DNA of 64,000 nucleotides. Origin: an uncultured Candidatus Saccharibacteria bacterium. GTDB lineage: Bacteria; Patescibacteriota; Saccharimonadia; CAILAD01; GCA-016700035. Each line of letters starts with the position of its first letter. The stretch's first letter is position 1. Positions 5,422 through 56,121 of the stretch are shown piece by piece. The stretch is from positions 4,708-68,707 of the forward strand of contig CAYMMM010000001.1 of the NCBI GenBank assembly GCA_964391595.1. The letters run 5' to 3'. The notes beneath the pieces were generated by a model. The model searched no databases and was not told the origin of the DNA. It was given only the letters and a program-made list of their open reading frames with translations. Made by a program: the position numbers and the translations under genes.

Positions 5422-6878
5422 TCAACTACCTCGCCACCAAGTATTTCCAGGGCACTAGCCACAAGCTCTTGATCGTTATCTTGCTTCGGAGTGTTCGACT
5501 GAGACTCACCAGTGTGTTCAACCTTCAGTTCGATAGTCCTGCCAGATACCTTTGTAAATATTGCTTCGATGAGCTGGCGATTGTGCGCTTCTTCGATGCG
5601 TTCTTTGTGAAAACGGAAGCGACAGCGAATGAACAGTACACCGTCTTTGAGCTGCGGCTCACCTGAGCGTAGTACGGCATACAGCGAGTTGTTTTTTGTT
5701 TTGATGAGTGACAGTGCTTTCGTAGTGATAACTGAGTCATTCAGGCCTGTTGTCGGTATCGAAGATGCGGTGTCAGTGTTGCTTTCAACACTGGCTGGCT
5801 TTGGGGCTCTTCTTGCCTCCTTGGATGGATTCTGACCATGGGCTGGCGGTCTACTATATGGAGTGTTCGTTTGGGGTACTTGTGTTATTGCCTCTGCGCT
5901 CGTGAGCTCCCAGACTGCAAGCTCGAGTGGCAAGCTAGGGATATTTGCACTACGTTGCTCCGTGGCTGCTCGGGACAAAACACGCAATACCTGGTAGTAG
6001 CGATCTGCTTCAGTCTTGCTTGCAGCGAGGAATGCTTGCCGGACGTGACTCACGAGGTACTCAGTGAGGATCGAAGGATCTGCACCAGCAGAGAGTACGT
6101 CGGCAAGGTGTGATAATGCTAGTTTAGTATCCTTCTCGAGAATAGCATCTACCATGGCTAGAATGCGCGCTACATCGCCGATCCCGGAAGCTTGCGCTAC
6201 TACCGCACTCGTAATCGCGTCACCACGGCTTGCGAGTTGATCGAGGAGACTGAGCGCATCACGAAATCCTCCCTGAGCTTGCGTGGCGATAAGTTGTATC
6301 GCCTCTGGTTCTATACTGATCTGTTCTTTCTTCGCGACCACTGTAAGCGCCTCGGTTAGGTCTGTAGTAGATATTAGCCTGAAATCATGTCGCTGCGTGC
6401 GTGAGATAATAGTGTCGGGTAGCTTGTGCACCTCAGTTGTTGCTAGCACAAAGATGACGTGGGCTGGCGGCTCCTCGAGCGTCTTCAAGAGTGCATTAAA
6501 CGCCTCGCGTGTGAGCATGTGAACCTCGTCAATAATAAATACTTTGTATGGAAGGGTGCTTGGCGCGGTAGCTAGTTTGTCTCGGAGAGCACGAATCTCG
6601 TCAATACCACGATTTGATGCGGCATCAATCTCGATAATGTCGAGCTCGCGTACGATATCGGCCTCAGCAGGAAGGTTGTTTACTCGTCTCGCTATGATGC
6701 GCGCCACACTCGTCTTGCCGGTGCCTCTTGGACCAGTCAAAAGATACGCATGACTAATTGCGCCTTTTTGAAACGCTTTGTCGAGTGTGTCGGTCACATG
6801 CTTTTGTCCGACAACATCTTGCAGATCTAGTGGTCGATATGACCGATATAGAGCGAGCTGAACCACTCCCCTCCTCAC
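5418..6878 (-). CDS. dnaX: DNA polymerase III subunit gamma/tau
   Basis: 486 aa with a GPRGTGKT P-loop, a DEVHML box and an SRTQRHDF sensor motif. It overlaps dnaB by 4 nt. Confidence 0.9.
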   Translation of the reverse strand: MRRGVVQLALYRSYRPLDLQDVVGQKHVTDTLDKAFQKGAISHAYLLTGPRGTGKTSVARIIARRVNNLPAEADIVRELDIIEIDAASNRGIDEIRALRDKLATAPSTLPYKVFIIDEVHMLTREAFNALLKTLEEPPAHVIFVLATTEVHKLPDTIISRTQRHDFRLISTTDLTEALTVVAKKEQISIEPEAIQLIATQAQGGFRDALSLLDQLASRGDAITSAVVAQASGIGDVARILAMVDAILEKDTKLALSHLADVLSAGADPSILTEYLVSHVRQAFLAASKTEADRYYQVLRVLSRAATEQRSANIPSLPLELAVWELTSAEAITQVPQTNTPYSRPPAHGQNPSKEARRAPKPASVESNTDTASSIPTTGLNDSVITTKALSLIKTKNNSLYAVLRSGEPQLKDGVLFIRCRFRFHKERIEEAHNRQLIEAIFTKVSGRTIELKVEHTGESQSNTPKQDNDQELVASALEILGGEVVE

Positions 6879-9160: not shown

Positions 9161-10840
9161 TCAGTCTTCGGTGAGTGCAGCCTGACGCCGCGCCTCAAGT
9201 CGCTGCTCAGCTGCGATACGGCCGAGATCATATCGTTCATAGTCGGCGTAGCGCATCATCTCTGCAATTGCAGTGTGCCCGGCCACATTCTCGACTGCTT
9301 CGTGTATCGACTGACAGACCCGTCGGTAGTCGTCGTGGCCGGCGGGCTGAGTACGCAGCTCCACCATGTGTGTTAGCGCCCGGGCGTTGATCTGGATCGC
9401 GTAACGCATACGGTATGCGAAACCGAGTGCGTATTGAGGCTGAGCGTCAGCGGGAAAGACTCCACGCAGCTCGTCGAACAGCGCCGCCTGGGCTTCGAGT
9501 GCAGCGTCGTAGTGACCGCGCAGTCCCGATAGCTCAATCAGCGGTGGCACGATGTAGCCATGCACCGGCGTCAGCGTCTGCCAGGTCATGGTCAGCATGC
9601 GGTGCCGCTGAAGGTCGCGGAAGGCGCCGTAGTCGCTGAGGATCTCGAAGCGGTAACCAACCATCTCAAGCTGTCGCCCTGGCTTGTGACGCCGGTTGTG
9701 TGATCGATCACCGAAGTACGCTTCGAGTATCGACAACTTCTCATGATGGCTCATCAATTCCACGCGCCTACGCAGCTGTACCTCTGAGAAGTGCGTCTGC
9801 TCTGCCAGGATCGCGGCAACGAGCTTCACCTCATAATCGGGATCGAAGTCGAGTAGCTGTACCTCTGACGAGGTGGGCTCGAGCGTCAAGTCAGCCAGGA
9901 GTGCATCGGCTCGTTCGTTCACCGCTTCTCGATTTTGCTCGAGATAAGCACTCCAAGCGTTCCCGCGGTCTGGAAGATCGACGCGCTGCAAGAAGGATGG
10001 AATGACCTTGCGCAATTCCTTCAGCATCATGCCCGCGTATGCACGAGCTTCGGGCAGTGGATGAGCTCGCATGCGCAGCAACAGATGCTCGTACGACTGG
10101 CCCGAGCCGTAGATGCCCAAGTTCGAGATCGTCGCCGCAGGCAACAGTCCTCGAACATTGTCGAGCACTTTCGAACGTACCGACGCTTGCCAGGCAGGAA
10201 TCGACTGCCCATCAGCACGTGGATACAACTCCTCGGCCAGCGGCATGAGTTGCTCGAGCAGCCAGCTGTACTGCTGGAAGGTGATGTCCATGACATCCAC
10301 ATAGCGACCTGCCAACGGTGAGGCCATGATCTCGGGGTCGCGATAGTAGCGGTAGCGACCGTTCACGGTGCCGTCGTACCTGATGTAACGCGTCGATTGC
10401 TCGAGGTAGCCCATCAGGCGACCCCACTCGAGGATCTTGGTCAGCAGATTGCTGGCCTGCTCGCAGGCGAGGTGAGCCCCGCCCAGCTGCGCGACTGAAT
10501 CGTCGCCGTAGTCGCTGAACACCTTGTCGAACAGCTGTGTTCCGCGTTGAAGACCTGCGCCAGCGCCAGGTGCCACGTCCTCGGCTTCCTCGAGCTTCTC
10601 GTAGAACTCGGTGAGAAAAAGCCGACGCAGGCTCAACTCGGTGCGTGAGTAGCGCGCGAACAGTGCGGCGCGCACCACTTCGTCAAGTCCGCGCACTGCG
10701 AAGACCGGCAGATGCGTGTTGGTGAAGTAGCGCTCGAGGATTGCACACTCTGCTTCGGTGAACTCCTCGGCCGTGTAGCCGATGATGTCGGTTGGGGACA
10801 TCTTGTTCTCTCTTTCTGTCATGGTACTCTTGTCGAACAA
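9161..10840 (-). CDS. ThyX-family (Thy1, FAD-dependent thymidylate synthase-like) protein, double-length form
   Basis: 559 aa. The C-terminal region matches the ThyX C-terminal signature: NARALTHMVELRTQPAGHDDYRRVCQSI versus ThyX NARSL..LR...HAQ.EIR. An RHR motif is present (LQRHRMLT). The N-terminal half looks like a degenerate second copy. The gene appears G+C-rich. Confidence 0.6.
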   Translation of the reverse strand: MFDKSTMTERENKMSPTDIIGYTAEEFTEAECAILERYFTNTHLPVFAVRGLDEVVRAALFARYSRTELSLRRLFLTEFYEKLEEAEDVAPGAGAGLQRGTQLFDKVFSDYGDDSVAQLGGAHLACEQASNLLTKILEWGRLMGYLEQSTRYIRYDGTVNGRYRYYRDPEIMASPLAGRYVDVMDITFQQYSWLLEQLMPLAEELYPRADGQSIPAWQASVRSKVLDNVRGLLPAATISNLGIYGSGQSYEHLLLRMRAHPLPEARAYAGMMLKELRKVIPSFLQRVDLPDRGNAWSAYLEQNREAVNERADALLADLTLEPTSSEVQLLDFDPDYEVKLVAAILAEQTHFSEVQLRRRVELMSHHEKLSILEAYFGDRSHNRRHKPGRQLEMVGYRFEILSDYGAFRDLQRHRMLTMTWQTLTPVHGYIVPPLIELSGLRGHYDAALEAQAALFDELRGVFPADAQPQYALGFAYRMRYAIQINARALTHMVELRTQPAGHDDYRRVCQSIHEAVENVAGHTAIAEMMRYADYERYDLGRIAAEQRLEARRQAALTED

Positions 10841-10894
10841 GTCGTATCAATAATATCTGAAAACGTACAAAATACGAAATCATAAGGACTTTGT

Positions 10895-10929
10895 GAGAAA
10901 AAATACAGCCCCGGGATTGCTCCCGGGGC
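10895..10929 (-). terminator. Intrinsic terminator after tmk
   Basis: A 9-bp stem (GCCCCGGGA / UCCCGGGGC) is followed by UGUAUUUUUUCUC on the minus strand. Confidence 0.6.
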
Positions 10930-10939
10930 AAGGCAGCAT

Positions 10940-11587
10940 TTAACTAGTAAGGACATTCTCCTCTAGTAACGTTTTGATCGCTAGCGACACGCGCTCGATG
11001 GACTGAAGCCCGTAGATCTCGTGAGTGGTATAGCCCATTTCACGCATGATTCTACAGGCATCCATATACCCGTTTGCGATCATACGTAAATACTGCTCAC
11101 CTTGTGACTCGAAGAAATCACGTGCTTCGCCGCGTCCATCAACACGTCTTTCTGATTCGTCGTACGGCAGCGTGATGACAATGAAGAGATCCGGTCTACA
11201 GATCGGGTCGACGTACTTCTCGTGGAGGAGTCTGATCTCGTCTAGGTCGGTACCCCCGACGATGCCTTGATACACGAAGGTAGAAGCTTCGCTCCGATCG
11301 GCGATCACCCATTCGCCAGCTTCGAGGGCTGGAAGAACAACGCGTCGTCGCATACCCATTCGAGCGGCTACAAACGTCAGAAGCTCTTCGTCTGCTTCAT
11401 GGTGAAGGTCGGGGTCCTTCAATACGAGCCTGAGCGCTTCACCGAAGGGGTCGCCCCCGGGCTCGCGCACTACGCGACATCTCTGCCCCATGCCAGCGAG
11501 CCAATTGGCAATGATCTCGCATTGCGTGCCTTTGCCTGCCCCTTCGGTTCCTTCGATGACGATGTACTTTCCTCTTTCAGTCATCAA
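10940..11587 (-). CDS. tmk: Thymidylate kinase
   Basis: 215 aa with a P-loop (IVIEGTEGAGKGTQ) and the typical dTMP kinase fold motifs. Confidence 0.85.
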   Translation of the reverse strand: MMTERGKYIVIEGTEGAGKGTQCEIIANWLAGMGQRCRVVREPGGDPFGEALRLVLKDPDLHHEADEELLTFVAARMGMRRRVVLPALEAGEWVIADRSEASTFVYQGIVGGTDLDEIRLLHEKYVDPICRPDLFIVITLPYDESERRVDGRGEARDFFESQGEQYLRMIANGYMDACRIMREMGYTTHEIYGLQSIERVSLAIKTLLEENVLTS

Positions 11588-12528
11588 CCCTCCTCGAGGT
11601 TTGCGATAGAATAGTCCGGGATTGGGAGCAACGGCAACGGGGCAACGAACTCATCCTTGTCGGCGCGAGGGATCATGCGCTTGACCGACCAGTCGGCGAT
11701 AGTCTTCTCGAGACTATCCGATGCCGTATGGTACTTCGATGATGTTCCGCCGTACGGCCGCAGCACGGCGCCGGTATGGTGAAACACGATCTGTGCGATG
11801 CGGTCACCTACGGCCAGGATGCACAACTCCTGGTTGAAATTGTGGATCTCCATAGTCCAGCGGGTTGCGTAGCCGGGATCCCCCCATCCCGCGTCAATGC
11901 AGACTGCGATACCGTTGCGGCCAATCGTGCTGCGAGACTGCATTGAAGTTGTGCCGGGTGGCAGAATCCCAATGAACTCATGTGTATGAGCCAGAATGCG
12001 CTCCCCTGGGAATACGGGGATGACAAGCGCATCATCGGGCAGATTTGCGAGCAGCCCAAGTCCATTGGACTCACAGAATTCGCGATGAGGTTTTGGCTTC
12101 TCGGCCCGGAAGAATCGCTCAATGTCCTCGGGGTTGCGGTGGTCGTAGATTGGGCTCTTATTGGCATTCGCTACGAAGAACCCGTCTCCACCCAGCGTTA
12201 CATCGACTGAACTCCCTTTGATGTTGGCTGGTACCAGCGGGTGGCAGATGATGTTACCGCGACGGATCGCACCAAGAATCTCGCTGTCCGAATACACTCC
12301 ACCGGCGATGCGCTCGATGTAGGCAAGCAGGTTCTTGACCCACTTCTCGAAAGCATCAGGAGTGTTCAGAAGAGCCTTGATCGCCCCCGGATCGGACAAG
12401 CCCGCGAGGATTGCGCTCCTGAGTTGATCCGACGCCCTCTGGTCAGGGTGGATGCCCTGTAGAAGAGAGGCTTGATCGACAGCTCGTCGCGTCTTATCGA
12501 CCAGTTCATCCAAGTTGTCACTTGGCAT
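11584..12528 (-). CDS. dCTP deaminase/dUTPase-family protein (Dcd-like) with N- and C-terminal extensions
   Basis: 314 aa with a central Dcd/Dut-like core (AGWGDPGY and ILAVGDRIAQIVF motifs). It overlaps tmk by 4 nt. Confidence 0.65.
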   Translation of the reverse strand: MPSDNLDELVDKTRRAVDQASLLQGIHPDQRASDQLRSAILAGLSDPGAIKALLNTPDAFEKWVKNLLAYIERIAGGVYSDSEILGAIRRGNIICHPLVPANIKGSSVDVTLGGDGFFVANANKSPIYDHRNPEDIERFFRAEKPKPHREFCESNGLGLLANLPDDALVIPVFPGERILAHTHEFIGILPPGTTSMQSRSTIGRNGIAVCIDAGWGDPGYATRWTMEIHNFNQELCILAVGDRIAQIVFHHTGAVLRPYGGTSSKYHTASDSLEKTIADWSVKRMIPRADKDEFVAPLPLLPIPDYSIANLEEG

Positions 12529-45099: not shown

Positions 45100-45176
45100 A
45101 GGGGTGTAGCTCAGCTGGCTAGAGCGTCGGTCTCCAAAACCGAAGGCCGCGGGTTCGATCCCTGCCACCCCTGCCA
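45100..45176 (+). tRNA. tRNA-Trp (anticodon CCA), 3' CCA encoded
   Basis: I folded this by hand into a cloverleaf: acceptor AGGGGUG/CACCCCU, U8, D-loop GG, anticodon loop CUCCAAA, T-loop UUCGAUC, discriminator G, then CCA. Confidence 0.85.
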
Positions 45177-45252
45177 ATATTAATAACACTTATGTATGTA
45201 TGATCATTAATATTTATACAAGCAAATCAGTTACTACTACGGGTTTTTGGCG

Positions 45253-45645
45253 TTATTTCGTCTTTGAGGATCTCTTTAATATCGAGTTTACCTTTTCAAC
45301 TATAGTGTCGAGTGAAGTGTTTGACTTCAGTATGTAGTCAACTGCACCCGATATACTTAATTCGACCCTCCTATCAGTACTATCGAGATTGCTCATGACA
45401 ATCACTGGGATATCTTTTGTTGAAGCTTCAGACTTAATCTCTTCGAGCACATCCCAGCCTGTCGTGTCGGTGAGCATCACATCGAGCAAGACCAAATCGA
45501 TATCATGACTCACCTCTTTTAGACCCTCGCTACCTGTTCGAGCCGACTTTACTGCATATCCGGCATGCTTGAGCGATTCACAAAGTGCAGTATTGAGTGC
45601 TGCTTCGTCATCAATTACGAGTAAAGTATATTTCTTGTCTGACAT
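45253..45645 (-). CDS. Single-domain response regulator (receiver only)
   Basis: 130 aa with the phospho-acceptor Asp pocket (DD...D...K) and a C-terminal LKSNTSL tail. Confidence 0.8.
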   Translation of the reverse strand: MSDKKYTLLVIDDEAALNTALCESLKHAGYAVKSARTGSEGLKEVSHDIDLVLLDVMLTDTTGWDVLEEIKSEASTKDIPVIVMSNLDSTDRRVELSISGAVDYILKSNTSLDTIVEKVNSILKRSSKTK

Positions 45646-45670
45646 TACACCCTCCTTGGGTAGGTATTAC

Positions 45671-46054
45671 TTATGCTAATCGCTGCTTCACTAGCTGGAG
45701 TAGAAGCTCAATGGACGTATCTGACTTCACGAGATAGTCGTTGAGCATACCATCTTTGCGCACTTGATTCAGGTTTTTCAACATTTCTTCTTCTGTAGTG
45801 ACATTTGAGAGAATAATGACTGGTACCTGTGCACCCCACTCATCCTCGCGTAGCTTTGTGAGCATTTGTTCTCCACTCATCTTAGGCATCAGTAAGTCTA
45901 ATACAATGAGGCTTGGCTTTGACTCGAAGGCTATCTGTAAACCGTCTTCTCCATTGTCGGCATGCTGGATTTCGTACCCGTGGTCTGTCAGAGCATCTAT
46001 AAGCCCCTTACGAAGACTTTGGTCATCCTCAACGATAAGAATGCGTTTTGTCAT
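45671..46054 (-). CDS. Single-domain response regulator (receiver only)
   Basis: 127 aa with a C-terminal VKSDTSI tail. Confidence 0.8.
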   Translation of the reverse strand: MTKRILIVEDDQSLRKGLIDALTDHGYEIQHADNGEDGLQIAFESKPSLIVLDLLMPKMSGEQMLTKLREDEWGAQVPVIILSNVTTEEEMLKNLNQVRKDGMLNDYLVKSDTSIELLLQLVKQRLA

Positions 46055-46065
46055 AGTAATGCCCT

Positions 46066-46449
46066 CTACTTTAGAATTTCTGTACGAATATGGTTTATGA
46101 GTGCATCGAGCCTGAAGTCACTCTTGATATAGTATTCTTTTGCCCCAAACTGCAAATATGCAGACCGCTTGTCCTCACCTCCGGTGTTCGTGACAACAAA
46201 TACTGGGATATCCTTCCACTCAGACTGTTTAACGTGCTGTAAAAAGTCGAGGCCGTCTAATTTGCCGAGTAAATAATGATCCAGCCAAATAGCGTCAATT
46301 TGAGGCAAGTCATGCAGGTAGCCGAGTGCTTGCTCGACGCTTCGTGCTGTGACCGAGTCAAAGCCGTATGACTCGAGTTTACGCGATATAGCCAGTAATA
46401 GCGGCTTCTCATCTTCTATAATAAGTATGGTTTTATCGAGGTTAGACAT
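46066..46449 (-). CDS. Single-domain response regulator (receiver only)
   Basis: 127 aa with a C-terminal IKSDFRL tail. Confidence 0.8.
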   Translation of the reverse strand: MSNLDKTILIIEDEKPLLLAISRKLESYGFDSVTARSVEQALGYLHDLPQIDAIWLDHYLLGKLDGLDFLQHVKQSEWKDIPVFVVTNTGGEDKRSAYLQFGAKEYYIKSDFRLDALINHIRTEILK

Positions 46450-46462
46450 ACGCTATATTATA

Positions 46463-48082
46463 TCACTCAACGGAGAGTTTCTTAGCCCCAACACGACTAA
46501 TAGTCTTCAGTGGTAGATATACGTAAAATGTTGTTCCCTCTTTTACCTTTGATGTAAACCAGATATTACCATTTCCCTGATCAATAATGGATTTTAGAAT
46601 GTAAAGACCCAAACCGGTTCCGTCTGTATCTTTGTCCCTTACATTGTCTGCACGAAACATTTTACTAAAAATTTTGTGTTGCTGATTTTTGGGAATACCA
46701 TAACCAGTATCACTAACAGAAATAAGTACCCCAGCTCCTGGCAGCTTAAAGTCGGCTACCTTGCTGCCCGACTTAGCGCGCGTAATTGTGAGTGCAATCT
46801 TGCCTTTAGGAGGAGTGTATTTCGAAGCATTGGACAAGAGGTTTTGGATAATCATCGAAAAGTACTGAGGATCAAATGTAATTTTCGGTAGGGTTTGTTC
46901 TAATTTTACATTTAGAGTTTGGTCATGCTTACTACAGATAAACTCCAGGTCTTTTACGGTATCCTTGATGCATCGGGCAATATTGAAGGGCTTGGAGTTG
47001 AAAGAAAACGTTCCCAACTCTAGCCTACTCACATTGAGAAGCGCATTGATAAGCTTGACCATGCGCTGGTTGGCATTATAGATTTCTTCGACATATTCTT
47101 TTTGCGCGGCAGAGAGATCACCTACATCTCCGTTCAGGAGCATCTCACTAAACCAATTGATTGCCGACAGTGGTGTGCGTAATTGATGTGAGGCTAGGGA
47201 CACAAACTCAGTTTTTGCTTTATCGATATCCTTCTCGATAGTGATGTCTCGCTCGGTACCGATAAAAAACTTAACTTCGTTTTTATCATTCAAGACCGGG
47301 GCTATTGTGGCTTGGGCGATATATTTCTGTCCGCTCTTACGAATGTTCGTAATTTCACCCGTAAAAAGTTTTTTCTCAACCTTAATGGTGTGCCAAAGCT
47401 TCCGATAGAAGGAACTTTCCATCAGTCCGCCCCATAGGGTGCCGGCCTTCGTGCCGATCATTTCTTTACTTGAGTAGCCCGTCATCTTCTCCGCAGCGGA
47501 ATTAGCATACAGAACTATCCCCTCGGCGTCTGTGATGATTATATGTTCGCCGCTGTTTTCGACAGCCAGGAAAAACTTTTGAGTTTCGAGGATTTGCCTC
47601 TTGTAGTTCTTCTGTTGAAGTTCTAGCTCTTCGAGAGAAGAAATGAGCTGCTCTTGTTGGATCTGACTCTTCTGCTCTTCGATTTTTTTGTGGGTGATGA
47701 GGATGCGAACAGACAAATATTTCTCTGGTTTCTTGTCTCGCCCCATGATTGGCACGATGGTAGTATCCACCCAATACAGTTTGCCAGTCTTTGATTTATT
47801 GAGTAGATCACCCCGCCAGGTCTGCCCACTACTGATAGTTTTCCATAAATCTTTATATACTTTTTGAGGCATGAGACCGGACTTGAGAATACGATGGTTC
47901 TGCCCAAGTAGCTCTTGCATGGTGTATTTTGATACTTCAGTAAACTTCGGATTCGTGTATATTATGTCGCCGTTTTTATCGGTTAACGAAATCATAGCCG
48001 CTTTGTTTACTGCTGTAAATAGTGCCTTATAGTCGAGTGTCTCGACAGGTTGGTTGTGCTTCAAATGCTTCCTACTTGGCAT
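46463..48082 (-). CDS. Sensor histidine kinase with tandem PAS domains
   Basis: 539 aa with an H-box (SHQLRTPLSAI) and N/G1/G2 boxes. It is cytoplasmic, with no TM helices evident. Confidence 0.85.
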   Translation of the reverse strand: MPSRKHLKHNQPVETLDYKALFTAVNKAAMISLTDKNGDIIYTNPKFTEVSKYTMQELLGQNHRILKSGLMPQKVYKDLWKTISSGQTWRGDLLNKSKTGKLYWVDTTIVPIMGRDKKPEKYLSVRILITHKKIEEQKSQIQQEQLISSLEELELQQKNYKRQILETQKFFLAVENSGEHIIITDAEGIVLYANSAAEKMTGYSSKEMIGTKAGTLWGGLMESSFYRKLWHTIKVEKKLFTGEITNIRKSGQKYIAQATIAPVLNDKNEVKFFIGTERDITIEKDIDKAKTEFVSLASHQLRTPLSAINWFSEMLLNGDVGDLSAAQKEYVEEIYNANQRMVKLINALLNVSRLELGTFSFNSKPFNIARCIKDTVKDLEFICSKHDQTLNVKLEQTLPKITFDPQYFSMIIQNLLSNASKYTPPKGKIALTITRAKSGSKVADFKLPGAGVLISVSDTGYGIPKNQQHKIFSKMFRADNVRDKDTDGTGLGLYILKSIIDQGNGNIWFTSKVKEGTTFYVYLPLKTISRVGAKKLSVE

Positions 48083-48752
48083 ACCCGACGAAATCCTCTG
48101 TCATTATGCGGTTAACCTGAACGCCATGCTGGGTTAGTGAAGTTAGAACGGCGTGGACCATATCTGGGGGGCCTGCTACGTACCATGTCCTATCTTTTTC
48201 ACGTAATTCAGCAGGAGAGATATGGCCAATAGTATACTTGTCGGACACTTCATGTATAGAAATGATATCTTGCATAGATCGAAGTTCATCACTAAATACA
48301 GCGTGACTCTTCTCTCTATGAAAATAATATATGCTTGAGCTAGGGTGACCTTCTAGCTGTCCTCTCGTCTGCAGCATACTCATAAATGGTGTAATCCCTA
48401 TACCTCCAGCGATTATTGATACCGGCCCATGTGCTGCCAATACGAACACCCCCTTGGGTCCAGCCACATGTACTTCATCACCTTTTTTGCGGTTTGCGAT
48501 GTGTTGCTTAAATTTTGATTCACTCATCCTAAAGGCTATCGAAATTAGAGGCAACGTAATTGGTGATGAGCAGATTGAGAAGTCTCGAACATTTTCCCTA
48601 GAAGACTCGGCAGACAATTCAGGAAGTGTGAGCGTTATATATTGTCCAGGAGTAAATGTGAATCCATCTATCATCCTGATTGTAACGCACAGCGTATTCT
48701 TGGAAAGATAATCTAGTCGCTCGATTGTAGCGCTTGACGGCTGAGTGTTCAT
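48072..48752 (-). CDS. FNR-like oxidoreductase (FAD-binding_6 plus NAD-binding_1)
   Basis: 226 aa with an RDFSICSSP motif (RxYS-type FAD site) and GGIGITPFMSM (NAD(P) site). It overlaps the kinase by 11 nt. Confidence 0.65.
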   Translation of the reverse strand: MNTQPSSATIERLDYLSKNTLCVTIRMIDGFTFTPGQYITLTLPELSAESSRENVRDFSICSSPITLPLISIAFRMSESKFKQHIANRKKGDEVHVAGPKGVFVLAAHGPVSIIAGGIGITPFMSMLQTRGQLEGHPSSSIYYFHREKSHAVFSDELRSMQDIISIHEVSDKYTIGHISPAELREKDRTWYVAGPPDMVHAVLTSLTQHGVQVNRIMTEDFVGYAK

Positions 48753-48804
48753 GCGTAGCTACTCAATCTCACTCGAGTAGAGCTCATTACTGCTACACAC
48801 TTCA

Positions 48805-49176
48805 TCATATGTTTCTTTCTACAACTTGGTCAAATTCGCGTAGCGAAATGTTAGCCTTCACTATAAACAATTTCGCGCCAAGTCTTTTACAGCGCTGTTT
48901 ATCTTCTTCTTGAGTTAGATTGGTCATGACAATCACTGGCGTATCTATGAGATTTTGCTGGACGTGACCAAGCACCGAAAAGCCATCTTCGATTGGCATA
49001 ATTATGTCGAGTAAGATGAGATCGTAGTGCTTTTTGTCTAAATATTTGTTGGCTTCTTTGCCATTTTCGGCGATAGTAACATCATAGCCATTTTTATGCA
49101 GGCGCAGCTTCATGGCCTTTGATAGGCTTTTTTCATCCTCAGCAATTAAAATGCTTTTTTTAGCTGATGTAATCAT
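48805..49176 (-). CDS. Single-domain response regulator (receiver only)
   Basis: 123 aa with a C-terminal VKANISL tail. Confidence 0.8.
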   Translation of the reverse strand: MITSAKKSILIAEDEKSLSKAMKLRLHKNGYDVTIAENGKEANKYLDKKHYDLILLDIIMPIEDGFSVLGHVQQNLIDTPVIVMTNLTQEEDKQRCKRLGAKLFIVKANISLREFDQVVERNI

Positions 49177-49229
49177 AACTTTGTTATAACTCTGATCTAA
49201 ATAACTAAAAAAGTCAAATTCGGGCTACC

Positions 49230-50696
49230 TTAATGTTGCTGAGCTGAAGTTAGTACTGGCGCGCGACGCGTTTTTTTCGAGTACTCACCGAGCTGGAGAC
49301 CCTTCATGACTATAGGTAATAGCCAGTAGGTCATCACAATAATCCAAAAGCCAGAAAACAGTAAGATTGTAGACACCCCGTATTCTAAGAAGTTATACGC
49401 GAGCGCAACATAGCCGATACTTAGAAAAGCTATTTGTGGAAATACCAGGTGGGCTTCTCGCTTACCGTGATCTGTTTTTGGCGTCACTCGATAGCTCGGT
49501 TTCTTTGTTGCAAACAGCGCGAGTACGGCAGCTCGAGCATAGACAGGGAACAGCCCCGCCCATACCCGTGATGTTAGCTGCCCTCTACTCAGCCACCCGA
49601 AAAACATCAGTGTCGCAATTAGTGCTGGTAGGCGGAAGGCAATATACCAATACCCCCCGTTGTGGATCTGAATGTTTGTAAAGAGCGTATAAAAATTTAT
49701 TGTGTAAATACCCGTAAGAAAGAACGCGCTCACAAGATAGCAATAGCCTATCTCAAAATAATGCAGTCGCTGACGGAAGCTCAACCCCGACATAAAAATA
49801 GGACTCTGCCAATACATGATCCGTAAGGTGTCGAGTGCCCAAGTTCCCCGTTGCTTGTAAATAGCGCTAAGGTCCGTTGGGGCATGGCCGAGGACATATG
49901 GTTGACTGACGTAGACACTCTTATAGCCTTTAGTATGAAAGATATATGAGGTATGCAGATCTTCTACGAGGTTCCACTCGCTAAACCCTCCTATGGCATC
50001 GAGAGCCTTACGACGGTATATTACCCCCGAGCCACAGCTTATGGCGGCGTCGTTTGCATTCTTCCCTGTTTGCATATGGTTATAGAACATGTAGTCATGA
50101 TTAAAATCATTATCTTCTACAGTAAAGGACTGCCTGGATGCGACAAGCGCTACCTCTTTATCTTTGAAATGACCCAATAGGTCATCAAGAATATTTGGCT
50201 GCACAACATTATCTGCGTCAATCGTTAATACATAGGGGGATTTGGCAAAGCGCAACCCATAATTCATATTTGCCGACTTGTACCGCTTCTGTGCACGATC
50301 TGGTCTTGACAGATAGGTGAAGCCATATTTCTCGGCTAGCTTCTTTACCCCTGCCCTACCGCCATCATCCAGAACATACAGATATAGGCTAGGGTGTTGT
50401 ATCTGAGATGCGGCGCGCATACTTTCCTCGAGCATCTTTAATGGCTCGTCCACGGTGGGTATAAATACATCAACCGATGCACGCAGAGAATACTCGCCGC
50501 CCAAAAGAACAAACTTTCTTGACCAATGATTCACTAAAAAGAGTAACGAAACAATGTAGACTAATATTTCAAATGCATAAAATAGCCATCCTAATGCGCC
50601 TACAACATGAAAGAACAACCAAGCCAAATACGTAGTGTTTGCCAGGAACATAATGAGCCCAAGTCGCCTGGTTTTGTCGAGCCTCGAGTGCTTCAC
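49230..50696 (-). CDS. Processive GT2 glycosyltransferase, cellulose/chitin-synthase-like membrane protein
   Basis: 488 aa with N- and C-terminal TM helices, a D, DxD (IDADN), D pattern, and a QRGTW motif, a variant of QxxRW. No PilZ domain is present. Confidence 0.7.
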   Translation of the reverse strand: MKHSRLDKTRRLGLIMFLANTTYLAWLFFHVVGALGWLFYAFEILVYIVSLLFLVNHWSRKFVLLGGEYSLRASVDVFIPTVDEPLKMLEESMRAASQIQHPSLYLYVLDDGGRAGVKKLAEKYGFTYLSRPDRAQKRYKSANMNYGLRFAKSPYVLTIDADNVVQPNILDDLLGHFKDKEVALVASRQSFTVEDNDFNHDYMFYNHMQTGKNANDAAISCGSGVIYRRKALDAIGGFSEWNLVEDLHTSYIFHTKGYKSVYVSQPYVLGHAPTDLSAIYKQRGTWALDTLRIMYWQSPIFMSGLSFRQRLHYFEIGYCYLVSAFFLTGIYTINFYTLFTNIQIHNGGYWYIAFRLPALIATLMFFGWLSRGQLTSRVWAGLFPVYARAAVLALFATKKPSYRVTPKTDHGKREAHLVFPQIAFLSIGYVALAYNFLEYGVSTILLFSGFWIIVMTYWLLPIVMKGLQLGEYSKKTRRAPVLTSAQQH

Positions 50697-50735
50697 ACTT
50701 GCCGATCCTTTATTAACTAGTTACTATTAAAGCAG

Positions 50736-51116
50736 ATGCGAGACATAAGCAAAACCACTAAGTCCGTAATGGTTGTAGAAGACGAGCCTTCACTCCTGGA
50801 AGTGATCTCGAAGCGCATGAAGGCGGCAGGCTACCGAGTTATGGAAGCAAGGGATGGCCAAGAGGCTGTTTCTCTCGCAAAACACGACATGCCAAATGTG
50901 CTTATTACCGACGTTATTATGCCGAAGAAGAATGGCTTTGACCTCATACAAGAATTGACGCGCATAAACCCCGATCTCCCGGCTATTATCATTACAAATC
51001 TCGAGGGTGATCAGGATCGAGATACTGGCACGCAGCTAAAAGTGAAGCATTTCCTCATTAAGTCAAATATTTCACTCCGTGAGCTTGATCAAAAAGTCGC
51101 GGCACTCATGAAATAG
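50736..51116 (+). CDS. Single-domain response regulator (receiver only)
   Basis: 126 aa with a C-terminal IKSNISL tail. It is divergent from the GT2 gene, with a 39-bp spacer. Confidence 0.8.
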   Translation: MRDISKTTKSVMVVEDEPSLLEVISKRMKAAGYRVMEARDGQEAVSLAKHDMPNVLITDVIMPKKNGFDLIQELTRINPDLPAIIITNLEGDQDRDTGTQLKVKHFLIKSNISLRELDQKVAALMK

Positions 51117-51184
51117 CGAGGCGTGGTTATTGTTAGTAGTAAAAAAATTGCCCGTCGTCGACTGACGAGGGGCTTTTTGACTCA

Positions 51185-51661
51185 CTAAGCAGCGATACCA
51201 TGCTGACTGAGGTAGTTGATAATCCGGCGAATATCGGCTTCATCTTTCTTACGGCCAATCGCCTGCTTCCAAGCTAGTATCCCCTCGGGAGTGAGTACTC
51301 GAATACCCTGGACGATACGTGACGATGGCTTAAGCTCTGTGAACGAAGCTCGATAAAGTGCGTCATTTGGCGGCAGCATGATGGTTATGTGGCCATTGAC
51401 CTCACGTTCACCATAGTCACCCACTACTTGTTCTAGATTCTTGAGTCGCGTTCCACGGCTTGTGGGGAGACCAATTTTACGAGCTTCATTGATGAGGCAG
51501 CCAGGTGTCACGATGATGTCATAGTCACTTATCTGAGGCTTGATGCCCCAGACCGCTAGGGCGGCCCCGCCGACCAGCATCGACTTTGTAGTCGGAAGAT
51601 CAAGTGCTCGTATGGGCGCCAATAGCGCGGTGAGCTGTGCAGCTTCGATTGGTGCTGGCAT
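51185..51661 (-). CDS. Minimal nucleotidyltransferase-fold protein (putative)
   Basis: 158 aa with a GGAALAVWG...SDYDIIV pattern resembling the pol-beta-superfamily NTase motif. This is weak evidence. Confidence 0.35.
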   Translation of the reverse strand: MPAPIEAAQLTALLAPIRALDLPTTKSMLVGGAALAVWGIKPQISDYDIIVTPGCLINEARKIGLPTSRGTRLKNLEQVVGDYGEREVNGHITIMLPPNDALYRASFTELKPSSRIVQGIRVLTPEGILAWKQAIGRKKDEADIRRIINYLSQHGIAA

Positions 51662-51890
51662 TGTTACTCCTAGGTAGGTACTTCACAATTGAATATACCC
51701 ATCATACTCGGTGTGTATGACGCGAGAAAAGCATGAGGGCTTGAACACATGTTGCTTTCGTCGCCGTTACGACTCATCAGCACAGCTTATACTCTGTGGA
51801 GCAACGACAAGCAGATCATGAGCTTCACCTCCCGAGAGGCGCACCGTGATGGTGGTCGTTGCCTCCCTGAAGGGATGTGTTGAGCCGGCG

Positions 51891-52271
51891 CTAGCGCTTG
51901 ATGCCCGCCTTGGCCAGCACGTCGGCGGGGACCCCCGCCTTGCGCCAGATGCCGTACTCGATGCCCTTGGAACTCGAGTAGGCGAGTCCGTGCAGGATGA
52001 ACGCTGCCTCCAGCTCCTCGAAGCCGTCGTCGGACTCGAGTTGCTTTAGCTCGACCTCGAGGTCGGACTGCTCCTGGATCAGGAGGACCTCCTGCAGCGC
52101 ATCGGCTTCGGGCAACATTTCGGCGATCTTGGCGAGACGTGCCTTGATCGAGTCGGGGGTGCGCTTGCGGCCCCGACTCGGCTTGTTCTTCCTGAGGGCG
52201 TCGAGGTACGCCTTCACGGCTCGGCCCTGGGCACGTCCGGCAGCGAGCGCGGCCTTGTGCTGGTCGGTCAT
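51891..52271 (-). CDS. Hypothetical protein encoded in a very G+C-rich insert (MTDQHKAALAAGRAQGRAVKAYLDAL...)
   Basis: 126 aa from ATG 52269-52271. The codon usage is strongly GC3-biased, unlike the flanking genes. The longer listed ORFs in this region are alternate-frame artefacts. Confidence 0.4.
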   Translation of the reverse strand: MTDQHKAALAAGRAQGRAVKAYLDALRKNKPSRGRKRTPDSIKARLAKIAEMLPEADALQEVLLIQEQSDLEVELKQLESDDGFEELEAAFILHGLAYSSSKGIEYGIWRKAGVPADVLAKAGIKR

Positions 52272-52636
52272 CGTTCTGTGCGGGCGCGGCGAGTGTCGGG
52301 CGCTGTCCGCCCGAACTGCACCCCGCATGTTGCGAGGACGGGATTCCGTGTGAATGGGCATTGGGATGCTTTCTTCCACCCTTGAAGGAGCTATGCAGGA
52401 CTTCTGCCTCGGCTTGCACGGGTGTGCTGGGTGGAAAGCGTGATTCTGATGCAGCCCCATCACACATCGGCTCCTTGCAAAATCACCTTTTCCACCAAGC
52501 ACAGCTCATGATCTGCTTGTGAATATACGAATCTTCTTTTGTGAGAAAATCCGCATATATATTAGTATAATATTGTGAATTTGTCAATTAATTTCATTAT
52601 ACTAAGGACTATGGAAGGATTGCGCGAAGCGGTATA

Positions 52637-53392
52637 ATGATGAGCATTATGGTGTCGCCACCCCAGCCGCGAGCAAATCAGAGAACTCAGACAAGCAGTA
52701 CAGTGCCGCCTTCTCCCGTGCCGGCCGCTACACCACCAAAGTCCCCAGGACATAAATGGCTGCCGGTGGTATTGATCTTTGCAATTCCGCTGCTTGCACT
52801 TGCATATAAGTTGATCGACAGCACAGTACACTCCCCAGCAATTGTCTGGAAGCTGCAGCGATCGCAGGCAGAATCTAAGCAAGCACAGGCGAAGACTGAT
52901 GCCGAAAGCGCGCTTGCAAGCACAGTTAATCGGCTTAAGAGCGTAGCTGAGAACTATGAAGTTAATACACAAAATACTCAGCTCGAAGTCCTGGATGAGA
53001 AGTTTGTCGATCATGGTTGCCAAGCAATTACGATTACGGGTGGAAGTAAATTTAATGAGCATCCGATCGGACGCAATATGAAGTGCATCTACGTAGTCGC
53101 GCAAGCAGTGCGACTGAGCCCTTATACGACGAGCCTAGCTGACCTCGTCGACGTAGCAAATCAAGATCAATCTGACAAAATCGGTATAACGTTTGGAGAC
53201 TCACGTCCGCAGCTTGGTGTGAAAACATACACTTCGGATAGCGCTACATCTTCTCCCCTCGTTGGCTATGGCGCCGAATGGGAGTATATCTATAATCGTC
53301 AGTGGTCAAATATTCAGCTTGTCGGCGGAAGCGATACAAAAGTCGTCTACGCTGTCTCGACGTACTATATTTTCTTCGATCAGGATCTCTAA
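52637..53392 (+). CDS. Membrane-anchored extracytoplasmic protein (hypothetical)
   Basis: 251 aa with a P/S/T-rich N-terminus, one TM helix and a beta-rich C-terminal domain. Confidence 0.45.
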   Translation: MMSIMVSPPQPRANQRTQTSSTVPPSPVPAATPPKSPGHKWLPVVLIFAIPLLALAYKLIDSTVHSPAIVWKLQRSQAESKQAQAKTDAESALASTVNRLKSVAENYEVNTQNTQLEVLDEKFVDHGCQAITITGGSKFNEHPIGRNMKCIYVVAQAVRLSPYTTSLADLVDVANQDQSDKIGITFGDSRPQLGVKTYTSDSATSSPLVGYGAEWEYIYNRQWSNIQLVGGSDTKVVYAVSTYYIFFDQDL

Positions 53393-53427
53393 GCGTGCCG
53401 GGCAATCGAACTGCGACTCAACATGGC

Positions 53428-54363
53428 ATGGAGCTACCGATCCGTGCACTGTTCTTGCCGTACGCGGTGTGCATACTCTCACTCCTGTTTCTACTGGTAC
53501 TTAAGGCGGTGCAGTTTGATTTTACACGTCTCCCCCAACAGCCAAGCGATATCGCGTTCCTGCTCATATTTCTGGAGCTGCCACATATCGTCGCCAGTCA
53601 TTTGATGCTGATTGATCGCGAGTACGGGGAGTTTTATTGGCCGAAATTAGCGGGGAGATATGCCATTGCTGCCGTGAGCTTGACCGGAATTTGGTACTTT
53701 CTCGGAGCAGCAAGCTTCTTTGCGGCGTATTTCATCTGGACTGTCTACCACGTTCTCAAGCAGCAAATTGGCATCGGTCGCATTATGAATCGTCAGCCGA
53801 ATCAACTGTATGAGCTGTGGGGCTACATCCTGATTGCTGGCTCACTGATCTTAGCGGCAGTTATCGGTTACTACAGAGTTGGGCTTGGCGGCTACGAAGG
53901 CTGGCTCAAACTAGTTTCGTATGTCTTCGCGTGCGTGATACTTGGCCTAGGCTTCATGGCGTCTCGACAGCTCAAGCAGCAGCTAGGTAAATGGTATGTC
54001 TTCGCGAATACTACAATGTATCTTAGTGTACTTGCTTGCTTTTTACTCGGAGCGCCGTTTTTTGTAATCTTCATTCCGCGTATCATCCATGACGCGACAG
54101 CGTATATGCTCTACATCAACCATGACATAAATCGCAATGCGCGCGTGCGCAAAAATATCATCTATCGCACAGCCTGGTTTGTCCCCGTGTGGGCTGCAAC
54201 GCTGCTTTTCTCAATCATGTTTGGTGGTCTCATAACCTTTGGTATCGTGCCCTTTGCCTTTCAGCTTAGTGTAACCGTGACTCTATCACACTATGTCCTT
54301 GAGTCAGTCGTATGGCGCGGCACGAGCATCCATCGGAAGTCTCTTCGACTCTCTTTTACTTAG
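53428..54363 (+). CDS. Polytopic membrane protein (hypothetical)
   Basis: The start is MELPIRAL at 53428; the listed ORF start overlaps the upstream gene. It has about 8 TM helices. Confidence 0.45.
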   Translation: MELPIRALFLPYAVCILSLLFLLVLKAVQFDFTRLPQQPSDIAFLLIFLELPHIVASHLMLIDREYGEFYWPKLAGRYAIAAVSLTGIWYFLGAASFFAAYFIWTVYHVLKQQIGIGRIMNRQPNQLYELWGYILIAGSLILAAVIGYYRVGLGGYEGWLKLVSYVFACVILGLGFMASRQLKQQLGKWYVFANTTMYLSVLACFLLGAPFFVIFIPRIIHDATAYMLYINHDINRNARVRKNIIYRTAWFVPVWAATLLFSIMFGGLITFGIVPFAFQLSVTVTLSHYVLESVVWRGTSIHRKSLRLSFT

Positions 54364-54438
54364 CTTTGTGGGTATGGTACTTGTTTTGCGACTCAGAGCA
54401 TAGAGCCAGACAAGCATAAGCTGTATAATGTAGAGGCT

Positions 54439-56121
54439 ATGACCGATTCCGACAAAATGTTTGAGGGTGCGAGCGAGTACTCAGTTACGGCAGAGCTCAT
54501 AAGCCCCATTACGCTGCTGTCGGCCGCACTCTTGGCGATTGATTACATCCGCGGTATGACCTTTGCCACTTCGCCGCAGTTGGTGTTTATCTTCGTTGGG
54601 CTTCTGGTAGTTACATCTCTCGTACTTTTCATCCCCGCTTTAAAGTTTGGTAAGCGGCATGCCATCTATCTCATTATCTACCACATCACTCTAGCATTTG
54701 CGCTGATATTTATCGTCAATACTCAGTCGTATTATCTGCTGCTCTGGGTACTGCTAGCGTACATTACGAGCAATTATTATCAGGTTTGGGGCCTTACAAC
54801 CACGCTCGCGCTACTCTTAGTTGTGATGATCGCTAGTGTTAGCTATCAGGCGCATGGCCTCACAGTGACACATGTCCTCGATATTCTGCCGGCATACACC
54901 ATGGTGGCTGCGCTTTGCACTCTCCTTGCGCGCATTGGCCTAGGGAATCGCAAACAGCGACTTGCCATGAAGCAAAAAATCACACAGGCAGGATACGAGC
55001 ACGAACGCCTCATTGCCCTCATTAACTCAGTAAGTGAGGCGGTGATTGCAATCAATCAAGAGGGTCAGATTACTCTCTTTAATGCAGCTGCACTCGATCT
55101 GATTGACACAAATATGGAGCTTACGGGACAAGCTATAAACAACGTTCTGCGCTTGCGTGATGAGAAGAACAATGGCATTGATATGCTCAAGCTCATTCGA
55201 GATACCAAGTACATTCAACGACGAAGTGACTTGATCATGCCCGTTGGTAGCGATGACCACATTGCTCTTGATGTAAATATCAGCCGCGTGTCGATCACAG
55301 CACCGATGACGCAGAAGCAAGAAGGCTACATTCTCCTCCTGCGCGACATCACGCAAGAAAAGTCACTGGATGAAGAGCGCGAACTCTTCATATCCGAAGT
55401 GAGCCACGAATTACGTACTCCCCTCACGATCGCAGAAGCCAACGTGTCGATGGCAGAATTGTCTGCAGGAAAACCAGACATGGATCGAACGAAGCTCGTA
55501 GAGGTCATCGCAAAAGCCCATAAGCAGATACTCTTCCTTGCTGATATGGTTAATGATCTCTCCACCTTATCGCGGGCTCAAAGACCAGATGCTGAGATGG
55601 ACGTTGCCACGTTCCTAGTGCAAGAGGTTATTGATGAGCTCATACGTACGTATGCCCCGCAGGCTCAGAAGAAGAATCTCTACTTACATGCTCAAGTTGC
55701 ACCAGATTTGCCACAAGTAACGACCTCCAGGCTTTATTTCAAAGAAATCATGCAAAACTTCATCACGAATGCGATCAAATACACGCCTTCTGGAGGTGTG
55801 ACTGTGATCGCGCAGCTCGCCAATGATCATACACTGCAGATAGGTGTACGCGACACCGGTATTGGCATTTCGAAAAGTGAACTGAATAAAGTGTATGAGA
55901 AGTTCTGGCGCTCAGAGGATCCATATACGCGCCAGACAAGTGGCACCGGTCTTGGTCTCTTCATCACTGCAAAGCTCGCAAAACGCATTGGTGCACAACT
56001 GAATCTCGAGAGTGAGCTCAAGAAGGGATCGACTTTCAGCCTGCTCTTACCTGTTGTTGCCGTTAAGGATGTAGACGTCAAGAACTTGGTTAAAGAAGAA
56101 GTTCAACACCTCTATGAGTAG
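54439..56121 (+). CDS. Membrane-bound sensor histidine kinase (multi-TM sensor, PAS, HisKA, HATPase)
   Basis: 560 aa with an H-box (VSHELRTPLT), a G2 box (GTGLGL) and 5-6 N-terminal TM helices. Confidence 0.85.
   Translation: MTDSDKMFEGASEYSVTAELISPITLLSAALLAIDYIRGMTFATSPQLVFIFVGLLVVTSLVLFIPALKFGKRHAIYLIIYHITLAFALIFIVNTQSYYLLLWVLLAYITSNYYQVWGLTTTLALLLVVMIASVSYQAHGLTVTHVLDILPAYTMVAALCTLLARIGLGNRKQRLAMKQKITQAGYEHERLIALINSVSEAVIAINQEGQITLFNAAALDLIDTNMELTGQAINNVLRLRDEKNNGIDMLKLIRDTKYIQRRSDLIMPVGSDDHIALDVNISRVSITAPMTQKQEGYILLLRDITQEKSLDEERELFISEVSHELRTPLTIAEANVSMAELSAGKPDMDRTKLVEVIAKAHKQILFLADMVNDLSTLSRAQRPDAEMDVATFLVQEVIDELIRTYAPQAQKKNLYLHAQVAPDLPQVTTSRLYFKEIMQNFITNAIKYTPSGGVTVIAQLANDHTLQIGVRDTGIGISKSELNKVYEKFWRSEDPYTRQTSGTGLGLFITAKLAKRIGAQLNLESELKKGSTFSLLLPVVAVKDVDVKNLVKEEVQHLYE

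Follow-up and report, generated by a model that had tools for sequence, protein, structure and literature searches.

A lineage of Saccharibacteria, which are ultra-small epibionts, appears to have taken up a single small gene from an actinobacterium of the Acidimicrobiia type, an unsampled Microthrixaceae-like lineage, and to have retained it on the minus strand as an expression cassette that is complete in itself; we put the probability of this reading at roughly 60%. The gene encodes a protein of 126 amino acids (51891-52271, minus strand) and lies in a stretch of 64,000 nucleotides (hereafter the window) of contig CAYMMM010000001.1 from an uncultured Candidatus Saccharibacteria bacterium. 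The cassette is about 840 nt long, from about 52587 to 51751. In the order of transcription it would consist of a sigma-70-like promoter, a structured leader, the foreign open reading frame (ORF) with its G+C-rich flanks, a 3' hairpin and a hammerhead motif.

An actinobacterial gene in a Saccharibacteria genome

An earlier note, made from the sequence alone, had described this region as a sharply bounded G+C-rich insert at 51720-52530, and profiles in 200-nt and 50-nt windows bear out the jump in composition. The G+C content is 0.64-0.68 over 51800-52400, against 0.44-0.53 nearby and about 0.48 in the whole window (200-nt windows), and the core above 0.6 covers 51825-52345, about 520 nt (50-nt windows). 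The left edge of this core is abrupt and coincides with the inner end of the left arm of an inverted repeat, and on the right the content passes through 0.52-0.58 over 52346-52502 to a spacer of 0.20-0.34. The G+C-rich part proper is therefore about 0.5 kb and the non-native unit about 0.82-0.84 kb. The bounds first proposed come near the latter, though the core is shorter.

Long ORFs had been claimed for every frame; several frames do have them (226, 203, 118 and 67 amino acids, besides the 126-residue frame). The choice of the 126-residue frame as the real one has proved right, as this protein has 399 homologues in a database search and its gene has a G+C content at the first, second and third codon positions of 0.69, 0.41 and 0.88. 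The third-position value (GC3) confirms the codon bias seen at first, the 39 other ORFs of the window having a mean of 0.516 (standard deviation 0.059, maximum 0.705). The public annotation calls a gene of 189 residues here, but the additional N-terminal stretch has neither homology nor a codon-position signal, and its in-frame values of 0.62, 0.57 and 0.67 speak against the longer call. The 5' untranslated stretch (52272-52422, minus strand) has a G+C content of 71% in the 79 nt nearest the gene (52272-52350) and of 56% in 52351-52422; it has no conserved sequence and no significant similarity to the DNA upstream of the gene in donors.

The family to which the protein belongs comprises 2139 cluster representatives at E<=1e-3, and every homologue whose source names an organism is actinobacterial. 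The best matches other than the protein itself, 69-71% identical in amino acids, come from metagenome-assembled genomes (MAGs) of the Acidimicrobiales/Microthrixaceae. Four distinct lineages on the donor side have the gene in the purine operon, by itself and in opposite orientation, with purL on one side of it and purQ on the other. The nucleotide match to these loci is 73-76% and is restricted to the coding sequence (CDS); the donor DNA upstream and downstream has no significant similarity to the window, and the intergenic regions of the donors are mutually unalignable too. A neighbour-joining tree of 77 sequences, built without bootstrap, nests the window protein in a Microthrixaceae-like clade with an ordinary root-to-tip length, and the GC3 of the gene (0.88) falls in the range of its Acidimicrobiia homologues (0.81-0.88). 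The actinobacterial origin suspected in the earlier note is thus upheld by the clade and by the conserved position between purL and purQ. As the top donor-side match reaches only 71% in amino acids and 76% in nucleotides, the donor lineage itself is unsampled.

The earlier note had considered that the recipient might be an epibiont of Actinobacteria. This guess is borne out, and the genome assigned to the Saccharibacteria, by the adjoining glycosyltransferase, which is 82% identical to one from a MAG named 'uncultured Candidatus Saccharibacteria bacterium'. An abrupt shift in composition could also arise from an assembly chimera, an actinobacterial fragment wrongly joined into a Saccharibacteria contig, and the low-coverage contigs L009 and L012-L015 do terminate within or close to the block. 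However, the block is present on ten contigs of other assemblies at 99.95-100% identity over 1.2-8.5 kb, and five contigs (L001, L007, L008, L010 and L011), from five different sample accessions and in three naming styles (NODE, k141 and Logan), continue through both junctions. The exact 126-residue protein is also encoded on one 98-kb NCBI contig. Against a chimera there is also the fact that the exact block sequence is known in this context only, that the closest actinobacterial DNA is just 73-76% identical and matches in the CDS only, and that the same architecture occurs in a second lineage (contig L071). A chimera, through which the earlier note had seen its finding fail, is refuted as far as assemblies go, and the chance of one is negligible.

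Two of these contigs differ locally from the window. L010 (1-203) is wholly divergent to the right of 53533, and L009 (1-23) departs from it over a short part of the cassette leader (52537-52544), for which L071 has yet another version. Such differences represent strain-level structural variation or contig-end artefacts. The end of L009 was considered as an alternative junction and rejected, since it corresponds to this short variable stretch within the leader.

The composition of the gene had been called unlike anything else in the window, which is slightly overstated. A block at 9161-12528 with a G+C content of 0.56-0.57 reaches a GC3 of 0.66-0.71, both well above the mean of the window. It contains a thyX-like gene (559 amino acids, with two Thy1 stretches), a thymidylate kinase gene (tmk) and a dCTP-deaminase-like gene (dcd), and is placed between the gene for ribosomal protein L1 and the L10 leader and L10 gene (8402-9087 and 12679-13668 alongside). 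Possibly this block too was imported, for the synthesis of dTTP, and interrupts the usual rplA-rplJ neighbourhood.

The empty site and a second cassette

A relative of the window genome is represented by the Logan contigs L023 and L024, which match it at 95.5% DNA identity along 3.5 kb on the right-hand side of the block. Both flanking genes are present there, divergently oriented and separated by an AT-rich spacer of 167 nt with no G+C-rich gene. The relatives L002 and L016 are also without the gene, but synteny is lost in them and they are uninformative about an empty site. When 51662-51734 is joined to 52557-52636, the product matches the L023 spacer (z score 3.4), and the window accordingly carries about 0.82 kb extra. 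A model with a 9-bp target-site duplication and an insert at 51699-52519 was rejected, as its reconstruction scores a z of -0.1 and the empty site contains an aligned counterpart of 51699-51734.

The native leader of the downstream gene p158 (51690-51734, plus strand) aligns to the L023 spacer with z scores of 3.1-3.4, a similarity reached by 3 of 500 shuffles. With 52520-52556 in the cassette leader it forms an imperfect direct repeat of 37-45 nt, of which it is the left copy. None of 2000 shuffles was as similar, and with the exact 9-mer TGAATATAC left aside the similarity was reached by 3 of 2000. This points either to a partial duplication of the target on insertion or to a cassette promoter and leader that derive from those of p158.

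The sister of the window protein in the tree is not actinobacterial. This protein, P0020, is encoded on the low-GC contigs L071-L073, in an island with a G+C content of 0.63-0.70 amid genes of 0.33-0.55. These contigs and those of the empty-site relative belong to one sample series, and L071 overlaps L024 at 99.4%. The gene order in the relative is tRNA-Trp, four genes, the cassette, a 207-residue gene, the p158 homologue and the empty spacer, and in the window it is tRNA-Trp, eight genes, p158 and the cassette, so that p158 has the cassette on one side in the window and on the other in the relative. The two cassettes are homologous from the -35 box to the end of a conserved 55-nt block downstream of the ORF, and outside these limits identity is 32-41%, as for random sequence. 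Within them it is 57% in the promoter and leader, 39% in the 5' untranslated region (effectively unalignable), 65-72% in the CDS (63% in the protein), 70% in the 3' hairpin region, 78% in the right and 89% in the left repeat arm, and 91% in the hammerhead.

Judging from these alignments, the gene is not private to the window genome, and a homologous cassette is present in a second Saccharibacteria lineage. Its different position and the 63% identity of its protein indicate that the acquisition probably predates the split of the lineages. The earlier note had allowed that the segment might instead match a gene that is conserved in the host lineage and has this composition in relatives as well. 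What was found is a gene in two lineages only, an empty site in a near relative and a family that is otherwise actinobacterial.

The ratio of non-synonymous to synonymous substitutions (dN/dS) between the window and L071 copies is 0.24, with a dS of about 1.3. Donor genes have ratios of 0.05-0.18, and the Saccharibacterial value is therefore relaxed by comparison but still clearly purifying. The window protein retains 27 of 27 invariant positions of the family, and the cassette is present on every conspecific contig that was found. On the strength of the substitution ratio, the protein has been under purifying selection since both copies diverged.

Both Saccharibacterial copies have kept a high G+C content, with a GC3 of 0.88 in the window and 0.77 in L071 and with 64-71% G+C in their 5' untranslated regions. 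This could mean that there were two acquisitions, or repeated replacement, in which the promoter, repeat arms, 3' hairpin and ribozyme serve as a landing pad and the centre is renewed by recombination with the DNA of the current actinobacterial host; the CDS would then track the host and not the epibiont. Such renewal would suit a centre that is far more diverged than the framework (5' untranslated region 39% and CDS 65-72%, against 91% in the hammerhead and 89% in the left arm) and yet G+C-rich in both genomes at a dS of about 1.3. It would also suit a window copy that is nearer to Acidimicrobiia genes (68-71% in amino acids) than to the other Saccharibacterial copy (63%). However, the two Saccharibacterial proteins share derived residues relative to the donor clade (LLIQEQ, DDG, AFI and AGV) and are sisters in the neighbour-joining tree, and the donors lack framework homology that could guide recombination. 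Polarised third-position changes run mostly from GC to AT on either branch (6:1 and 13:4), which makes slow amelioration after one event the simplest account. We therefore regard renewal of the centre as improbable, and prefer a single acquisition.

The surroundings of the cassette are variable. From tRNA-Trp (45100-45176) to a conserved histidine kinase gene (54439-56121), gene content differs from that of the relative; p158 and p251 are shared but just 54-56% identical, and the switch in identity is sharp near 53517. The whole segment (45100-56121) has the look of a variable island beside a tRNA gene, with breakpoints left by recombination. The p158 gene itself (51185-51661) matches phrog_12854, for which no function is assigned (E 4e-6), and its GG..A...DYD pattern looks nucleotidyltransferase-like. 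Just two other clusters of relatives were found for it among 5.8 billion proteins.

Predicted promoter, inverted repeat and hammerhead motif

Reading the block as an insert was correct as to its foreign origin, but overlooked the promoter, inverted repeat and hammerhead motif of an organised unit. The predicted sigma-70-like promoter (52559-52587, minus strand) has a -35 box TTGACA at 52587-52582, a 17-nt spacer and a -10 box TAATAT at 52564-52559. The homologous place in L071 has TTGACT (1155-1160) and TACTAT (1178-1183), likewise at a spacing of 17 nt. Leader hairpin 1 follows (52523-52558, minus strand), with about 15 pairs when the window copy is folded by itself and 11-12 in the consensus of both sequences. 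L071 preserves it with one-sided G-U/G-C changes only, and its loop, which includes 52537-52544, varies among strains (L009, L071). Leader hairpin 2 (52423-52503, minus strand), found in a repeat search, has 26-nt arms that are 85% complementary. Its stem is kept between the window and L071 with five pairs changed on both sides (RNAalifold), and in Rfam it has weak generic hairpin-type matches only. Right after the stop codon there is a 3' hairpin (51828-51873, minus strand), of which RNAalifold keeps 15 pairs in the window and L071.

The ORF is bracketed by a perfect inverted repeat of 18 nt, with arms that are 100% complementary and 678 nt apart. The right arm (52503-52520, AGCTCATGATCTGCTTGT on the plus strand) would be the 5' arm of the transcript and the left arm (51807-51824, ACAAGCAGATCATGAGCT on the plus strand) its 3' arm. 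The 18-mer has two copies only in the window, and in none of 100 shuffles were there two. Elsewhere, copies were found at 43 loci of metagenome contigs, all in unrelated coding contexts except for the same contig, and there were none in IMG/VR. The L071 arms retain 15 nt of pairing, and a matched double change from C:G to T:A in them indicates that pairing has been preserved. The predicted processed transcripts of both loci, from just past the -10 box to the ribozyme cut, were folded, and in the minimum free energy (MFE) and centroid folds alike the arms pair and close the whole message (z scores -7.4 and -5.5).

The repeat might be a DNA signal and not an RNA stem. The unit would then be a non-autonomous mobile element of about 0.7-0.8 kb, a small transposon or something like a miniature inverted-repeat transposable element (MITE), with the actinobacterial gene as cargo and terminal repeats read by a transposase encoded elsewhere, and it would hop within and between Saccharibacteria genomes. 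In keeping with this, the perfect 18-nt repeat stands at the edges of the foreign DNA, as do the terminal repeats of insertion sequences and MITEs, and both arms are altered together in L071. The side of p158 on which the unit lies differs between two related genomes, the location is a variable island beside a tRNA gene, and a sister strain has an empty site. The 9-mer TGAATATAC moreover abuts the right arm and recurs on the left within the imperfect direct repeat of 37-45 nt. However, there is no clean target-site duplication: the arms have different flanks (GAGCAACG and GAATATAC), and the left 9-mer is 108 nt away from the left arm, on its outer side, within native DNA alignable to the empty site. 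Homology between the cassettes continues past both arms, as far as the promoter at one end and the ribozyme at the other. Neither the unit nor the neighbouring ORFs with Pfam hits include a transposase or integrase, and further copies were not found in the window, in IMG/VR, in metagenome contigs (the same contig aside) or in phage and plasmid collections. Overall a mobile element seems unlikely to us. An integron cassette was also considered and rejected, as attC-type R''/R' core sites were not seen by eye and there is no integrase nearby.

The reading as an expression cassette draws further on the segment at 51751-51805 (minus strand), in which alignment to L071 reveals a type III hammerhead motif. 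From 51805 to 51751 the minus strand reads GUUGCU-C / CACAG-AGUAUAAG-CUGUG / CUGAUGA / GUCGU-AACG-GCGAC / GAAA-GCAAC. The catalytic core is complete (C3 U4 G5 A6 N7 G8 A9 and G12 A13 A14), being CUGAUGA...GAAA in the window and CUGACGA...GAAA in L071, and differs at the free position N7 alone; the other changes in L071 are in two loops and an extra stem III pair. Stem III (GUUGCU/AGCAAC, 6-7 bp) is open, and stem I (CACAG/CUGUG) and stem II (GUCGU/GCGAC), each of 5 bp, are both looped. The cleavage triplet is CUC with C17 at 51799, the predicted cut lies at 51799/51798, and A15.1 of GAAA pairs with U16.1.

The three-way junction emerges from the MFE fold of the L071 copy and from unguided RNAalifold on both copies, while the window copy's own MFE favours an alternative fold. 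In a purpose-written pattern scan the motif was the sole hit of the window, and some 60 unrelated loci gave none. Among 200 shuffled 64-kb windows there was one lenient and no strict hit, a chance rate of about 0.005 per 64-kb window. Between the lineages 51 of 56 positions of the hammerhead are identical, and the flanking DNA is unalignable. Neither the ribozyme nor the 3' module was found in IMG/VR, phage or plasmid collections, and a search for a second self-cleaving ribozyme on the 5' side gave generic hairpin matches only. On these grounds of pattern and conservation we regard the hammerhead motif as real and its ribozyme activity as putative. The public annotation has an ORF of 44 residues on the plus strand (51749-51883), across the hammerhead and left repeat arm. 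The RNA elements account for its conservation in L071, and it is probably not a gene.

The gene could also be a neutral passenger, brought in by natural uptake of environmental or host DNA and not usefully expressed, with hairpins, repeat and 'hammerhead' that are native or coincidental. It has a donor-like composition in the CDS and in both non-coding flanks, it sits in a hypervariable island, its protein has no known function, it lacks a Shine-Dalgarno motif, and the Rfam score of the hammerhead is below threshold. Set against this are the dN/dS of 0.24, the retention of every invariant family residue and the presence of the cassette on all conspecific contigs found. The ribozyme segment is the best-conserved part (91%) although the adjoining non-cassette DNA is unalignable, there are compensatory changes in the inverted repeat and in hairpin 2, and the hammerhead pattern has the low chance rate given above. 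We accordingly give little credence to a neutral passenger.

If the cassette works as its parts suggest, transcription would start near 52552 from the conserved promoter, and the hammerhead would cut the RNA after C17 (51799), eight nt beyond the 3' repeat arm. The cut would part the message from the downstream gene, which is p158 here and another gene in the relative. Through the 18-bp stem, the leader would hold the 2',3'-cyclic-phosphate end of the message, which would become a closed 'panhandle' mRNA shielded from exonucleases. The downstream RNA would be set free and would begin with the ribozyme scaffold, bearing a 5'-OH. A message that is both stabilised and insulated from what lies downstream fits a unit that works in two different neighbourhoods. 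One could go further and see in the promoter, 5'/3' clamp and hammerhead a type of cassette new in the candidate phyla radiation (CPR), which would make autonomous, insulated messages of imported host genes and would relocate or be re-loaded with host DNA; we consider this a long shot.

Several points weigh against a host gene kept as a working cassette. With the donor no nearer than 71% in amino acids, that it was a host is something we infer. A GC3 of 0.77-0.88 despite a dS of about 1.3 is awkward for one old acquisition, and with two distinct cassette sequences only, covariation comes from one comparison. The promoter consensus scan taken alone is at chance level, with one match against 0.7 expected. 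The Rfam type III model RF00008 aligns the hammerhead correctly but gives it 19 bits (E 0.055) in a scan of 121 nt, against a gathering score of 48.5. This low type III score explains the silence of the whole-window and 1.1-kb Rfam scans, and the L071 copy has a weak type I match only (14 bits). There is no Shine-Dalgarno motif before the ATG, though just 10 of 38 window genes have one, and the predicted function of the protein is without backing from a family, a solved structure or a fold match.

Many genes of the window have a TATAAT-like box 5-12 nt ahead of the start codon (e.g. 52624-52629 before 52637, and the genes at 5418-6878 and 54439). Together with the low number of Shine-Dalgarno-like motifs, this suggests frequent leaderless or very short-leader mRNAs.

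The imported protein and comparison with known systems

The AlphaFold model of the 126-residue protein is all-helical, with six helices and a predicted local distance difference test (pLDDT) score of 89.3. The invariant P-x-RGRKRT motif (residues 30-38) forms the sole long loop of the model. Residues 1-45 carry a charge of +9.6 and the middle helix one of about -9. The protein belongs to no Pfam, NCBIfam, PHROG or PADLOC family (best Pfam E 0.003, below threshold; KfrA_N E 0.079). Sequence and profile searches of the PDB gave only E > 0.2 and Foldseek against the PDB and BFVD only E > 0.7, and no similarity in sequence, profile or fold was found to Lsr2, H-NS, IHF-type proteins or KfrA.

Given its basic N-terminal third, the RGRKRT loop and the gene context, the protein is most likely a nucleic-acid-binding factor. 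The context consists of the divergent promoter region of purL in the donors and of replication genes beside phage-like relatives, as IMG/VR relatives at 48-50% identity adjoin genes for SSB, a DnaN-like protein and an SNF2 helicase. On the far-reaching reading that we called a long shot, the protein might be a regulator of host type that binds nucleic acids and originates in the purine operon of the host. The epibiont relies on nucleotides of its host and might then direct the protein at DNA derived from the host, or at the host. Members of the same family, 35-50% identical, occur on IMG/VR contigs (L068, 1325-1702; L070, 4001-4378), one of which is 225 kb long, and in a Caudovirales genome from mangrove soil (MK557849.1, 12445-12756).

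Lsr2 and sIHF/mIHF are small actinobacterial nucleoid-associated proteins. By analogy the present protein could be compared with them, as it is small, has a basic segment with an RGR-type motif, is found mainly in Actinomycetota and is encoded beside nucleotide-biosynthesis operons. It differs from them in the lack of any detected sequence, profile or fold similarity, and represents a separate, unnamed family.

Transfer of genes into Saccharibacteria and other CPR bacteria has precedents. The arginine deiminase system of mammal-associated Saccharibacteria was acquired from host to epibiont (PMC8764695), and 84 CPR-bacteria transfer events have been reported from activated sludge (PMC10031880). 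As in those cases, a foreign gene of donor-like composition is found in the reduced genome of an epibiont, and the donor phylum, Actinomycetota, is that of all cultured hosts of Saccharimonadia (PMC10943839). In contrast to them, the donor belongs to the Acidimicrobiia (Microthrixaceae-like), a class with no documented hosts, one 126-residue protein of regulatory type is carried in place of a metabolic pathway, and the gene is set in a conserved framework of promoter, repeat and ribozyme at two positions. Ca. Microthrix co-occurs with three genera of Saccharimonadia in wastewater networks, and the donor signal agrees with these network-based hints of an association (PMC10943839).

Bacterial hammerheads (types I-III) are intergenic, often flank small ORFs of unassigned function and are linked to phages, and their role is open (PMC6155905). 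The present motif resembles them in its full core, in its three stems in type III layout and in its intergenic position directly after a small ORF. It differs in that one ribozyme only flanks the ORF, that it is coupled to an 18-nt 5'/3' repeat which would hold the cleaved 3' end to the leader, that the ORF is an identifiable cross-phylum import and that the organism is a CPR bacterium. Among the papers searched, none linked hammerheads with Saccharibacteria.

In the processing stalks of rRNA precursors, long-range 5'/3' stems bracket an RNA for processing or stabilisation, and RiboJ is an engineered ribozyme insulator. The cassette may be likened to both, as a pairing of leader and trailer would close the RNA and a ribozyme would set an end and uncouple the cistrons. 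In this case, however, it is a natural protein-coding message that is bracketed.

Transfer to epibionts and genomic hammerheads of bacteria are each already documented, and neither is new in kind. What is new is their combination, a selected cross-phylum import within a framework of promoter, clamp and ribozyme, at two positions of a tRNA-adjacent island of a CPR bacterium. It provides a clean, multiply assembled case of cross-phylum import into a Saccharibacterium, with an empty site for comparison. The ribozyme stands in a simple conserved layout, after the leader-pairing 3' arm and between two genes, which predicts 3'-end formation, insulation and a clamped mRNA. Acidimicrobiia and Microthrixaceae have so far been tied to Saccharimonadia by co-occurrence statistics only, and the donor signal is therefore a lead for host prediction. 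The case also indicates that, despite strong genome reduction, an imported gene can stay under purifying selection with the codon usage of its donor inside a native regulatory framework.

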